A stretch of DNA of 64,000 nt, taken from NCBI GenBank assembly GCA_951406725.2, contig OX597831.1:30938001-31002000 (forward strand). Reading direction: 5' to 3'. Under the pieces are notes generated by a model that was given only the letters and a program-made list of their open reading frames with translations, had not been told where the DNA came from and did no database searches. The stretch is from Octopus vulgaris. Lineage: Eukaryota. Of the stretch, positions 2,333-16,338 are shown piece after piece; the first letter of the stretch is position 1, and every line of letters begins with the position of its first letter. Made by a program: the position numbers and the translations under genes.

Positions 2333-2902
2333 CTCATTTACTCATTTACTTGTTTCAGTCATTTGACTGCGGCCATGCTGGAGCACCGCCTTTTAGTCGA
2401 GCAAATCGACCCCAGGACTTATTCCTTGTAAGCCCAGTACTTATTCTATCGGTCTCTTTTGCCGAACCGCTAAGTGACGGGGACGTAAACACACCAGTAC
2501 CGGTTGTCAAGCAATGCTAGGGGGACAAACACAGACACACAAACATACACACACACACACACGCACACATATATATATATACATATATACGACGGGCTTT
2601 TTTCAGTTTCCGTCTACCAAATCCACTCACAATGCTTTGGTCGGCCCGAGGCTATAGCAGAAGACACTTGCCCAAGATGCCACGCAGTGGGACTGAACCC
2701 GGAACCATGTGGTTGGTAAGCAAGCTACTTTATTTCAAAACATTTGCCATAAAGGCAGTACACAGATTAAGTTAGCTTTGCGGGCTGGACGAGGACATTA
2801 ATGAGGTGAATGATAATGAAAGAAAGATGATAAGGATGGGAGAAGACAAAAAGCGCCCGCCGACTTTTGCTTCTCTAAAACATTGTTCTTTTTAAAGATA
2901 AA

Positions 2903-3024
2903 CACAAAACGAGGTATTAAACCTCTTACAATTTTTACAATTTTTGGACTTAGCAGTCCATTATTAATACAAAACGAGGTATTAATCCTCTTACAATTTT
3001 TCAATTTTTGGACTTAATTCCATT
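2903..3024. repeat. ~65-bp tandem duplication in the element 3' UTR
   Basis: ACAAAACGAGGTATTAA.CCTCTTACAATTTTT.CAATTTTTGGACTTA occurs twice. Confidence 0.85.
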
Positions 3025-3025
3025 A

Positions 3026-3544
3026 CTAATAATACATATCGTCCTCGAAATAGCTTGTGCCCGCGCCCTCCACCATCAACCACGCCTCCCTCAGAACGTA
3101 TTCAAGTTTCGAGTTGGCGTCGCCCGGGACCAAGTCATAATCTTCATTGAGCTCCTTTAGCCCTAGCGTCACGTCGAACGCCACGGCCTCCACAGCTACC
3201 TGCGGAGGCCATTCGGGGTCCTGTGTGAAGGTTAAAGGTGCTCCCTTGTAGTGCTCTTCCATCACTTTTTCAATTTCTCCTCCTCTATAGAAGAGGACCA
3301 ATACATTCAGTTCTTTCGTTGGCGGCACAGTTTCCGCCAACGGTATTCCTTCTCTTGTCGGTGGCACAGCCCCAACCGACGTAGTTCCGCGACATTCCGG
3401 TGCTACACTGACAGCCGGTAATGTCCCGTTTTTCTTCCTCTTTTTCTTTTTTTCCCTTTTCAACTGAGGGAGGGTGCGTCTCCTCCGTGGCTGGAAGAAT
3501 CGCGTTCCTCTCCTCATCCCTATTATCCTTTGGTGAGCACCCAT
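3026..3544 (-). CDS. Overlapping +1-frame ORF, probable C-terminal extension of ORF1 (function unknown)
   Basis: 172 open codons overlapping ORF1; complex protein-like C-terminal half (LVLFYRGGEIEKVMEEHY...FEDDMYY); frames overlap across an A-rich run at ~3430-3460. Confidence 0.45.
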   Translation of the reverse strand: MGAHQRIIGMRRGTRFFQPRRRRTLPQLKREKKKKRKKNGTLPAVSVAPECRGTTSVGAVPPTREGIPLAETVPPTKELNVLVLFYRGGEIEKVMEEHYKGAPLTFTQDPEWPPQVAVEAVAFDVTLGLKELNEDYDLVPGDANSKLEYVLREAWLMVEGAGTSYFEDDMYY

Positions 3545-4268
3545 TGTTGCTCACCTTCCTCTTTCGGCCTCTGTTTGAGGAGTCCTCTGCTTTCTCGGCC
3601 GTTATCGTTCCCTCTTCTAGAGGGGTTTTACTTAACTGTTCCGGGATCCTATTTTGTTTCCGAGGACAGTTCTTCTTTATGTGGCCGGACTCCAAGCACC
3701 GATGACACTTAGGGGGGCGACCCTCAAGCATCACCGGGTACCTGCACCCGGCCATTTTCAAAAAATCTGGAAGAACCAGATTGGCTGATTGGGTCCACAG
3801 GGTCAAAATTGCTTTTGACCCAACCCAAGCAGCCGCAGGAAGAACTTTTACATTGAGGAGCTTAGTTTCGCTGTCACCCAGACCCCGGCGGATAGTCTCC
3901 TCTATCCACTCGGGTTCTATGTCGGGTGGCAGTCCGCAGATCCAAGCTTTCATCAATTTCTTTTTTTTGTACGTGGGCAGGAATAAGATTTCCTTACCCT
4001 CCAAGGGTTTGCTAGCAAATTTGCAAGCCTCTTCAGGGGTGTCAAATAGCAACCACACCGTTGCATATTTGACACCCCTGGAAATGAATTTAATTGTTGG
4101 CAAATACTCTTCCAACTCCTTTTCAATTGCCGTCTTTTCGAATAGGGCGATGGTGTCAAGTGCCTTGGAGTAGGTTCTCAACACCACCGTCCTATCTTCA
4201 CGGTCTTTTAACCACTTTTTAGGTGGTATGATTTCCCACTCCAAAATTTTGTTATTTTTCATTGCCAT
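3285..4268 (-). CDS. Gag/ORF1-like nucleic-acid-binding protein with CCHC zinc knuckle (327 aa)
   Basis: Intact ATG ORF; EGRPPKCHRCLESGHIKKNCP is CX2CX4HX4C, preceded by an RRM-like ICGLPPDI segment typical of L1/Tx1 ORF1. Confidence 0.8.
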   Translation of the reverse strand: MAMKNNKILEWEIIPPKKWLKDREDRTVVLRTYSKALDTIALFEKTAIEKELEEYLPTIKFISRGVKYATVWLLFDTPEEACKFASKPLEGKEILFLPTYKKKKLMKAWICGLPPDIEPEWIEETIRRGLGDSETKLLNVKVLPAAAWVGSKAILTLWTQSANLVLPDFLKMAGCRYPVMLEGRPPKCHRCLESGHIKKNCPRKQNRIPEQLSKTPLEEGTITAEKAEDSSNRGRKRKVSNNGCSPKDNRDEERNAILPATEETHPPSVEKGKKEKEEEKRDITGCQCSTGMSRNYVGWGCATDKRRNTVGGNCAANERTECIGPLL

Positions 4269-5027
4269 GTTTTTTTAAAAATATATTCAAATTAAACTCA
4301 AAAGCAGGAAGAAAAAAGTTCAAAAGTCCAAATAAAATTTGATAGATTTTTGAAAAAACAAAAAGGAGAAAGCACAACAGAAGGGAAGAAATTAACGGAA
4401 AGTCGCAATAAAGAAAACAAAACAAAAAGGGGGGTTAAATGAAGTTCAAAAGAAAGTTAATAAACAGAAAAAACACAGCAAAAATATTCTGGCCTTGCGG
4501 TACTCCCGGCCTGGGTTGAACCTGGAACGCCTCAACTGCAACACAACCTCCACAAAAATCGGTCCGAAAGGTAATCCAATAGTGGCTTATTTTTATAATT
4601 TTCTTGCGAAGTACTCTGACAAGGGAATAAATTCAACAAACCCAAACACAGCACTGGCTACCGCCAACGGTAATTTTAACAGTAACTGTGTTGAATTCTG
4701 AGGATACGCCCCTCCACTGTTTTTTCTTTTTTTTCAATGAACACAAAAACGGCAGCCGCCGAGAGCAGGCGAAATTGTCTCAGAGTTGGACACAACCTAC
4801 TGAAATAATAATTGGCACGCAATAAATTATGCCCAACTCACAATAAACAAAATCACTTACCTCGACAACTTTCCGTTTTTGGTCTTTTTTCTTTAATTGG
4901 ACAGAGCTGATTGACTCGCGTCCACTCTGGCTGAACAGGAAGCAACTGACTAATTGCGCATGTGCGTTAGCAAAGCTACTTGGTAAGCAAGCTACTTACC
5001 ACACAGCCACTCCTGCGCCTATATATA

Positions 5028-5315
5028 TATATATGAAAAAAACAAGTCAAAAATAGAAAATGCTAAAATAATTTTATAGTGAACATTTCAGTACCGGTTT
5101 CGGTCATTTTGAGACCTTTTCAACTGTAACGATTAAATAATTAAATTTAGAAAAATTTAAATTTTTCTAAATTTAATTATTTAATCGTTACAGTTGAAAA
5201 GGTCTCAAAATGACCGAAACCGGTACTGAAATGTTCACTATAAAATTATTTTAGCATTTTCTATTTTTGACTTGTTTTTTCATATATATCAACTCGTGTG
5301 TTCCTTTTCACCCTT

Positions 5316-14185: not shown

Positions 14186-15715
14186 TTTATTTTATGATAT
14201 TGGCTATGGAAGCCGTACATAGAGGAGACAGCACAAGGTGGGGACAAAAAACAAAACGAATGGGAAGGATGAATTGAATATAATGTAAAAGGAAATGAAG
14301 TTATTCGGCTCCCACCTCCTACCGACTTTATTGAACCTGTTAATATAACCTTTTTTAAAAAAAAAAACACTAGTTTATATACTAATATTGACAATGCCAT
14401 TGTAGCAGCTAATTTCCACTTTCTTGGAAAATGTCTGTTAAGTTCCTTTAAAATATATGCATAAATTACCCTTTTAGGCATTATGCTGATGTCCATTTTC
14501 TAAAGGCACCAATCAAAGTCAATTTCTTCCACGTAATTCCTCAATCTCGAGAGGTACTCTGGATCTGCCACTGCACAGCAAACGTCCTCGGGCAACCCCT
14601 TACCCTTGTTCCATCCACTTCTATTGCTCTGTCCCATGTCTTTATCTCATTACAAAGTTCTTCCTTTTTTTCTTTTGTACAATTTTACAAATTTATCCAA
14701 GGGTCGGGGTGGGGAAATTTGGGGCTCCTGTGTGTTCGTGCTTGTGTTTATGTCAGGCGAAGTATGGAGAGGATTGCTGTCAGTAGAGAGTAGTTGGAAT
14801 AGGTTGGGAGTTGGTGGGAGCCGGCTAGCTGTGGAATGGGGGTCATCCTTTACTGCGAGTGTGTTTTTTCTCTTCTTGTTTTCCCGCTGTTTCCCAGCCG
14901 GTATTCACCCCCTCTTCTTCGACGCTGGTACTGGGTTTTGTCTGTGGTACTGTTTCAATCTCCTTCTCGTGCTCCTCCTCAGCCTCCACGGGCAGTGGAG
15001 TACCAACAACTTTCTCGCTCTCTTGCCTCTCCTTAGCCTTCACAGGTGGTGGAGGACAATCCGCTCTAATGTGACCTTTCAGGCCACATTTGTAGCACCG
15101 CGGAATCCTCCCTTCCACTCTAACTCTTAGTGTCATTTCTCCGCCCGTAATGGTCTCTACCATATTTTCAGTGTCTCCCAGGGCCACCTGTATTACCATG
15201 TCTAGGCTCTGCACTTGCCAGTCCCTGTAGGGTGTTCTGATGGCCTGAGGGATCACTCCCCTCTCCTCCATGCCTAGCAGTATGGCAGCCACCAGCCAGG
15301 CTACATTCACTTCTGGGGGTACATCTTCTACCCTAACCCTGGAAGCCCGTCTCCCAAGGTATACGGGTAGAAGCACACCTTCGTCAGTTTTTAATGGTGT
15401 TGCTGAGTGCAGTCTGGCGGTAGCTATCTCCCGAAACTGCACCTCCATCGTTCCAAACTTTCTTCCCCTAGGAAATCCCTTGCCAGCCTGGTCTCGGCGC
15501 CTTTTCAACTTGGGTTGTTGACACTACTTCAATTTTTTCGTTGCCACCGCGTATGTTCTATAAATAAATGTCCTCTCATTTTGTTCTTTTAAAACTTTTT
15601 TAGGGTGGGGAACACCTTCACATTTTCCTTTTGCTGCTTCAGTATAATTTTTTTGTTTCTATTTCCTTGTCAATTTTATTCAGACACTTCACCAATTCTT
15701 CCTCAGATGACACAA
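14186..15715 (-). mobile_element. Second, diverged ORF1-only retroposon
   Basis: ORF1 homologous to 3285-4268; same 3' hairpin plus AATAAA terminus at 14186-14222; 5' side abuts a mariner fragment; no RT seen between ORF and 3' end. Confidence 0.7.
14843..15625 (-). pseudogene. Frameshifted gag/ORF1-like CCHC protein
   Basis: EGRIPRCYKCGLKGHIRADCP; an upstream frame gives VFPTLKKVLKEQNERTFIYRTY, which aligns to IIPPKKWLKDREDRTVVLRTY of copy 1; disrupted near 15480-15530. Confidence 0.75.
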
Positions 15716-16338
15716 AGTCTGAACAAGTTTTAATCGTTTTCGACACAATCAAGGAGATCTTATGCAACTGAAACCCGAGTGTCTTTTTGGTCAGCTGAAA
15801 GCACTTTTTGCACAAGCTTGGCAGACACGCGTCTCATACCCAATATTCAGTGATAATGAACTGAACTGAACCGTAACTAATCTACGCATCCTCTGATAAC
15901 TCACAGATGGTGATTCGACGATTTCCCCTCACAGCTGCGCGCACATTTGCGATGTTTTTCTCAAATCTGCTGGTAGTAGATCTCCCAGAACGTTCTTCAC
16001 TATCGACATGTTTCGGCCATCTTGGAAACATCTGAACCACTTGTACACTTGTGTGCGACTCATGCATTCGTCTCCATACATTTCCTGCAACTTTTCGTAG
16101 GCCTATGAATAGGTATCGCCATGACAAACATTTTTTGTCATGGCCAATGCAACGATCACATGTTACATACGTTATGTCCAAGCACTGCTGTAAAAAGGAG
16201 ATGTAAGCTAGAACGTTAAAACTTAGTGTGCATGCACAACAGAGATCGAGGTCAATCTGTATCAAGCAGCATTACTCTGCGTGCTTTAGCTTCGTTACTA
16301 TGGCAACGGTCCGGATACTTATTGATCAGATCACATAT
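15715..16338 (-). mobile_element. Mariner (Tc1/mariner) 5' fragment, decayed transposase
   Basis: TIR-like TATGTGATCTGATCAATAAGTATCCGGAC; translation DSEERSGRSTTS...NRRITICELSE, then GMRRVSAKLVQKVLSADQK. Confidence 0.8.

Follow-up and report, generated by a model that had tools for sequence, protein, structure and literature searches.

An insert of 2,249 bp on the minus strand (4979-2731), flanked by identical 18-bp repeats, interrupts a SINE in the window, a 64,000-nucleotide stretch of the Octopus vulgaris genome, and is one copy of a young multicopy family that encodes ORF1 without ORF2. We consider it very probable that these elements form an ORF1-only non-LTR family inserting at a fixed site in the SINE head, likely mobilised in trans by an L1/Tx1-type element that uses the same site. 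When the insert is left out, the two SINE halves (5016-4980 and 2730-2333) match an uninterrupted copy at 97% and 89%, respectively, which restores the SINE as the earlier note described. The 18-bp target site duplication proposed there is a perfect repeat, but its length is atypical and the junction match is partly carried by the element itself. The remaining parts of the insert are given in Table 1.

Table 1 Parts of the insert and of its host SINE (window positions)
Feature	Position	Strand	Remark
Host SINE head, 5′ part	4998..5019	-	97% match to uninterrupted SINE copy
18-bp direct repeat, 5′ copy	4980..4997	-	Target duplication, unusually long in window copy
Target-like 5′ start, element-encoded	4966..4979	-	Re-creates insertion site; also opens autonomous partner; present where local target differs
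5′ UTR, 711 nt	4269..4979	-	Exchangeable module
ORF1, 414 aa in intact copies	3026..4268	-	Frameshifted in window copy; predicted domains
CCHC zinc knuckle, aa 188-201	3666..3707	-	
A-run	3447..3453	-	Window copy departs from family frame here
3′ UTR, ~295 nt	2731..3025	-	
Internal duplication in 3′ UTR	2898-3009	-	65-nt spacing
4-bp stem and 5-nt loop near 3′ end	2745..2757	-	Common to partner
18-bp direct repeat, 3′ copy	2713..2730	-	Target site in SINE
Rest of host SINE	2333..2712	-	Internal TA/TG repeat, short-repeat tail

The 5′ UTR, put at ~0.7 kb in the earlier note, measures 711 nt. It is likely a Pol II promoter and contains what we take to be an NRF1-like motif (4955-4965, minus strand) and a splice-donor-like GTAAGT (4855-4860, minus strand). 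Sequences of this donor-like type (GGTAAG or GGTAGG) lie 75-120 nt from the start in every 5′ module examined, including that of the partner (window 4855-4860, L028, L029, L111, L121, L161 and L205); for the 5′-module type of the window, the exon end followed by a non-G base, as expected of spliced genomic copies, has 0 matches. Contigs of four runs presumed to be RNA cover the element piecewise, with SINE empty-site forms at the joints shown, and are uninformative on the strand, start, splicing or level of an element transcript. At the other end, the short 3′ UTR described as closing on AATAAA does lack a poly(A), but the real 3′ UTR is far longer (Table 1), and the final AA of the motif double as the first two target letters. 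A tblastn search with the partner ORF2 gave no match across the entire window, in line with the reported lack of a reverse transcriptase in the insert. Two other features of the window are worth recording. Just upstream of the SINE head lies a perfect 244-bp palindrome (5037-5280) of two 122-nt arms without spacer, either a real fold-back or an assembly artefact. A second, divergent ORF1-like element (~14187-15750, minus strand; CCHC frame 14846-15523) has a similar stem-loop and an AAATA-type 3′ end ~650 nt past its CCHC frame; it has no ORF2, lies outside the SINE site and resembles a second ORF1-only lineage described below.

In a DNA search of the genome, 26 of the 40 candidates scored, the window copy included, match over nearly the full length at 95-100%, so the window insert is not a chance arrangement; further copies match the window element from position 367 onward. 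A 3′ UTR motif has 430 exact genome matches, and the protein search for ORF1 returned at least 150. The ORF1-only unit is dispersed, with a constant 3′ end, 5′ truncations and independent host SINEs. All 30 loci from the DNA search are colinear with the window copy and lack ORF2. Another 40 ORF1 loci, comprising the first 20 outside the DNA-search set and 20 chosen down the ranking, have the 3′ UTR directly after ORF1 in 39 cases and are broken within ORF1 in one; ORF2 matches at six of them belong to neighbouring elements. In a sister subfamily (~66% protein identity), tblastn found no ORF2 in 30 of 30 loci. Together, the best 150 of over 11,000 candidates were scored per search and 100 ORF1 loci were inspected, of which 99 are traceable and one is broken, with no ORF2 between ORF1 and the 3′ end. 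A reverse transcriptase at that position in other copies, which the earlier note had named as the mark of a one-off deletion, is thus absent from the 100 loci, and a one-off deletion is rejected. A rare ORF2-bearing member of the family is compatible with a sample of this size. At L086 (~1390-1504), a ~110-nt internally deleted derivative occupies the same site as an ORF-less bipartite form, made only of the 5′ start and the 3′ end. Runs X15-X20, which bear four organism labels, carry about half of the sampled words of the element, hinting at close relatives in other species.

The target is an interspersed repeat of ~400 bp with a simple-repeat tail, represented by 20 BLAST segments within the window. 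The last 26 letters of the element have 217 exact genome matches, of which 212 run on into the target. The proposed targeting between A- and B-box-like motifs is borne out, with insertion one base after the A-box-like motif (which we take to lie at 4999-5009, minus strand, in the host SINE head) and upstream of the B box (presumably 2689-2699, minus strand). The label of a tRNA head draws on these two motifs, as judged against the consensus we assume for them, but ARAGORN predicts no tRNA in the window, and Rfam scans of the SINE head and of the element 5′ end gave no tRNA and no ribozyme. Upstream of the element, the SINE head is found in 28 of 30 loci and the 3′ end of another element in 2; among the further 40 loci, 31 have the SINE head, six another element's 3′ end and three an undetected upstream neighbour. 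There are 623 exact matches to a pattern that captures any end joined to the target, compared with 53,949 exact empty sites matching a 33-letter head pattern in the 2.8-Gb genome. Filled sites are thus ~1% of exact empty sites, and the effect of the insertions on the host is probably small. An older SINE variant hosts four older copies (L161, L162, L164 and L165), three of which carry that variant at their 5′ ends. Two loci (L081 and L098) have the element 3′ end and the SINE body with no SINE head found upstream, and may derive from read-through transcripts mobilised by the partner of the SINE itself.

Elements differ by 2.1% over their last 600 nt and host SINE bodies by 10.8%, and the two divergences are uncorrelated (47 loci, Mantel p 0.76; of 70 loci, 55 were used for junctions and 47 for this test), which indicates independent insertions. 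The same comparison bears on a single landing in a SINE, followed by spread of the insert as a SINE passenger or by segmental duplication with inherited flanks, a history we regard as extremely improbable. It would explain why every copy lies in the same SINE, and L081 and L098 could be read as read-through co-mobilisation; however, divergence among the host SINE bodies is five times that among the elements, with no correlation between the two, the flanks outside the SINE all differ, and unrelated ORF2-bearing elements and 5′-truncated copies occupy the same site, also in mixed arrays. Spread with the SINE is refuted for most copies.

The element and its partner both open with a ~15-nt copy of the target. 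Across the 55 copies, the match between the 5′ and 3′ junctions measures 15 nt in 16, 17 nt in nine and 18 nt in four. Specifically, a local target variant is missing from the 5′ junction in L004, L019, L127 and L135, from which it follows that the target-like 5′ start is encoded by the element. Local variants are copied to 7, 11 and 13 nt in L017, L029 and the 5′-truncated L154, and the window copy has an 18-nt duplication followed by a second, element-borne start, so the true duplications are variable, about 10-18 nt. In the 3′-shortened copy L027, the junction with the target falls on an internal GTAA match, consistent with microhomology priming. Since the target site is restored by each 5′ end, arrays arise. 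On C1 (G000:C1:223.69-223.71 Mb; L064, L065, L116), seven ORF1-only copies and one partner are stacked inside a single SINE, flanked by its head and its body; the mixed array on C7 (G000:C7:13.46-13.50 Mb; L061, L062, L118, L119) is longer and includes non-targeting families. Both run head-to-tail and mix several ORF1-only subfamilies with ORF2-bearing elements. Exchange of 5′ modules is seen between subfamilies and also with the partner (L156, L159).

Fixed sites and target-like ends are also features of Dada transposons, and a Dada-type DNA transposon directed to small-RNA-like promoters would suit a fixed site beside an A-box-like motif and a target-like end. Such an identity is vanishingly improbable: there is no transposase and no DDE Pfam match, the ORF is homologous to ORF1 of reverse transcriptase-bearing LINEs, and 5′-truncated copies with a constant 3′ end indicate target-primed reverse transcription. 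The ORF1 homology and the 5′ truncations refute it.

The autonomous LINE with a common 3′ end anticipated by the earlier note was found at the same target, with a terminus of ~37 nt in common, and was reached via the target junction. The first 30 target junctions in genome order have ORF2 upstream in five and this ORF1 clade in 16; the remaining ones are short or truncated, or have ORF1 farther off. Full-length partner copies (L111 and L112) measure 5.46 kb and carry ORF1 and ORF2 between the SINE head and body. The partner ORF2 contains Pfam domains Exo_endo_phos, RVT_1 and zf-RVT, corresponding to endonuclease, reverse transcriptase and zinc finger, and its best solved relative is human L1 ORF2p (E 8e-66, versus E 8e-22 for R2). 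The order of an N-terminal APE endonuclease, a reverse transcriptase and a C-terminal zinc finger assigns the partner, at the level of sequence, to the L1/Tx1 group; its tentative placement as 'Tx1' within the L1 group draws on architecture and behaviour, no named Tx1 sequence being among the matches. Of its best 30 3′ ends, 27 are at the target and 3 at the target-like start of an ORF1-only element (30/30). Partner copies are up to 99.9% identical, and 14 of the best 150 matches to its ORF2 fall within frames that stay open for at least 1,133 aa. The partner reverse transcriptase nests in an octopod clade that includes an Argonauta protein and non-targeting families 69-74% identical to it. 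The best 30 zf-RVT loci were rejected as partner: they have different 3′ ends and no SINE target, and represent sister ORF2 families. Used as a control, the sister families run on into the SINE body in 0 of 30 cases, and one of 30 lies at an array junction. One non-targeting ORF1- and ORF2-bearing family forms a tandem at L080 (G000:C2:73.04-73.06 Mb) with ~5.4-kb spacing.

The sole notable DNA match between the element and the partner is the last ~37 nt (78%, E 0.036). Within it lies a 4-bp stem closing a loop of 5-6 nt; over 24 distinct 3′ ends (30 loci, L108 left out), 96.9% of its cells are paired and 3 are compensatory. Of 500 stem shuffles, 2 reached the observed cell count and 33 the observed pair count; pairing in slid controls was 10-56%. 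With four pairs, related sequences and a short, weak match, the case for the 3′ stem-loop as a shared structure is suggestive, not strong. The stem-loop is likely a recognition signal for the reverse transcriptase, and mobilisation of the element in trans by the complete L1/Tx1-type element at the same site is likely on these comparisons.

The 327-aa CCHC frame reported as intact in the window does carry the knuckle (Pfam zf-CCHC, E 0.005, under the curated cut-off), but it is frameshifted relative to the family ORF1 of 412-414 aa. The window A-run is two letters shorter than the commonest spelling, which throws the 327-aa frame out of frame past ~residue 273, and the true ORF1 C-terminus sits in a 172-aa frame (3026-3544); compared with the 414-aa family ORF1, the frameshift rules out the 327-aa frame as the real protein. 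The A-run is off-frame in 30 of 53 callable copies, through reverse transcriptase slippage, mutation or assembly error, and ORF1 is open over 412-414 aa in only 16 of 55. For the window copy, mutation and homopolymer assembly error are both compatible with the assembly sequence. An AlphaFold2 model of ORF1 (15-row alignment, mean pLDDT 61.5) consists of two confident α/β domains in residues ~10-200, a disordered basic linker and a small C-terminal domain of low confidence. Tandem-RRM proteins, among them SFPQ/NONO and hnRNP A1, make up the fold matches shown (best E 5e-5, TM-scores low), and residues ~1-181 are predicted to form two RRM-like domains. Sequence matches to solved structures cover essentially the knuckle alone, and L1 ORF1p is absent from the 28 solved-structure sequence matches and from the fold matches shown. 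Over ~190 aa, ORF1 shares 23-34% identity with the ORF1 proteins of elements that carry ORF2, and ORF1-only proteins lack the N-terminal extension seen in autonomous ORF1s. Named relatives come from Octopus sinensis, O. vulgaris, O. bimaculoides and Argonauta hians.

The dN/dS check on ORF1 put forward in the earlier note revealed purifying selection, with ratios of 0.10-0.26 between subfamilies (dS 0.6-2.4), which are 60-70% identical in protein; closer pairs, private decay included, range from 0.15 to 0.44. Within the young family (55 copies), variants found in at least 3 copies have a pN/pS of 0.18 and no stops, and singletons have 0.57 and 14 stops (Fisher p 2e-4). Retention of ORF1 may also be explained by help to or antagonism of the partner, or service to the host, in a trans-mobilised element whose protein does not act on its own RNA. 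We judge this unlikely. HeT-A-type ORF1 proteins are proposed, in the available part of PMC5786205, to multimerise with those of autonomous partners, and the octopus elements and their partner co-occur in arrays and swap 5′ modules, but selection on a dispersed multicopy family is most simply a cis benefit, and no single conserved host locus was seen.

Two trees were built, one of ORF1 sequences whose frame is open over the 165 aa preceding the knuckle (63 distinct sequences, 17 after reduction at 93% identity) and one of relatives (28 of 147 matches, with alignments of 150 aa or more). In these, the ORF1-only proteins and an O. sinensis protein form a fully supported clade whose long branch sets it outside all autonomous ORF1s sampled. 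The element and partner ORF1s are only 23-30% identical; the element therefore did not arise by simple deletion from the partner in its present form, and a parent of the ORF1-only clade was not found among the matches placed on the tree of relatives. A second ORF1-only lineage (L061, L119) is unrelated to that of the window, which implies that ORF2 was lost at least twice. It is very unlikely that the family arose through recent internal deletions in an autonomous element that carries this ORF1 and lies outside the sample. The scoring of only the best 150 of over 11,000 candidates leaves room for such a parent, and some copies (L156, L159) share 5′ modules with the partner; against it, 100 loci over several subfamilies hold no ORF2, the subfamilies have diverged to dS 1-2 under purifying selection, all without ORF2, and the clade holds the O. 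sinensis protein and no other relative among the tree-placed matches.

Mobilisation in trans of an ORF1-only family would proceed as follows, with promoter, start site and nick position deduced from the junctions. First, an internal Pol II promoter in the 5′ module would make an RNA that opens with the target copy; Pol III transcription is disfavoured by the T-runs and the displaced B box. ORF1p, with two predicted RRMs and a CCHC knuckle, would coat its own RNA, which would account for the purifying selection. The partner ORF2p would then recognise the 3′ stem-loop and nick the bottom strand at the TT/A step just past the A box, and reverse transcription would prime on the terminal AA of the RNA, leaving no poly(A) to be copied. 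Top-strand cleavage would take place about 10-18 nt downstream and leave an overhang to which the cDNA would anneal by its target-like 5′ end, a step that would favour full-length copies. The site would be regenerated before each copy, and the next element could land there.

Non-autonomous LINEs that retain ORF1 are described from the Jockey, L1 and CR1 groups as HeT-A, HAL1 and Ag-Sponge (available parts of PMC5786205 and PMC5753468). The octopus element is like these in having only ORF1, no reverse transcriptase or endonuclease and, by our reading, a reliance on an autonomous LINE, but it stems from an octopod L1/Tx1-type radiation, is specific for a SINE head and ends without a poly(A). Its CCHC-type ORF1 of octopod lineage further separates it from HAL1 proper, as it does not derive from mammalian L1 ORF1. 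The Drosophila telomeric elements, in which ORF1-only lineages beget further ones, are closely comparable: in HeT-A, TART and TAHRE, as far as the available part of 10.1101/2025.06.09.658640 describes them, ORF1-only and complete elements share a niche in mixed head-to-tail arrays, ORF1-only lineages yield further ORF1-only families and ORF2 has been lost more than once. In contrast, the octopus niche is an interspersed SINE site regenerated at each insertion, not chromosome ends, and the octopus system has no evident host service and belongs to a different LINE clade.

Tx1 elements are known to target a piggyBac derivative, U2, microsatellites and Mariner-N4, the last shared by SINEU-3 (PMC4494074, available part). 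The insertion of Tx1L into Tx1D, of Tx1-Mar and SINEU-3 into Mariner-N4_AMi and of Keno into U2 resembles the octopus case in the Tx1-type targeting of repeats, in the inheritance of a partner's target by a non-autonomous passenger and in tandem insertions (same part of PMC4494074). The octopus target, a SINE head, is of another type than the DNA transposon, snRNA gene and microsatellite targets described there. Unlike SINEU-3, the octopus passenger encodes a selected protein, and its specificity is 98%, compared with 90% (313/347) for SINEU-3 in that source. For cephalopods, the available text of a 2026 O. vulgaris annotation lists 13 recently active L1-Tx1 families with no target or structure detail (PMC13282606), and that of PMC8967140 names L1-Tx1 merely as a class; neither available text gives a target site, an ORF1-only structure or a partner relation. 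A search of the open literature found no SINE-targeting or ORF1-only Tx1-type element described in cephalopods; entries in repeat libraries (Repbase, Dfam) are possible, and the sequences may be present without a label in automated libraries. Taken singly, LINEs with only ORF1 and Tx1 elements that target transposons are both known; their combination was not found in print.

These observations extend the ORF1-only strategy to molluscan L1/Tx1-type elements and add a SINE head to the known targets. Tentatively, and with more doubt than confidence, the system may be an interstitial counterpart of HeT-A/TART, in which a SINE promoter offers a renewable landing pad where a complete L1/Tx1 element co-evolves with ancient ORF1-only lineages, both tracking changes in the SINE by their target-like 5′ ends and swapping promoter modules; the divergent ORF1 would be a specialised co-factor, with which the partner ORF2p works as well as, or better than, with its own. 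The recently active partner is of the APE type, reaches a site fidelity of about 98-100% and has non-targeting sisters ~70% identical in the reverse transcriptase; together with these sister families, it suits the study of how LINE endonucleases gain specificity. A young ORF1-only family, a near-identical active partner and a single defined target are thus brought together in one genome, a natural test of why some non-autonomous LINEs keep a selected ORF1 while SINEs manage without.
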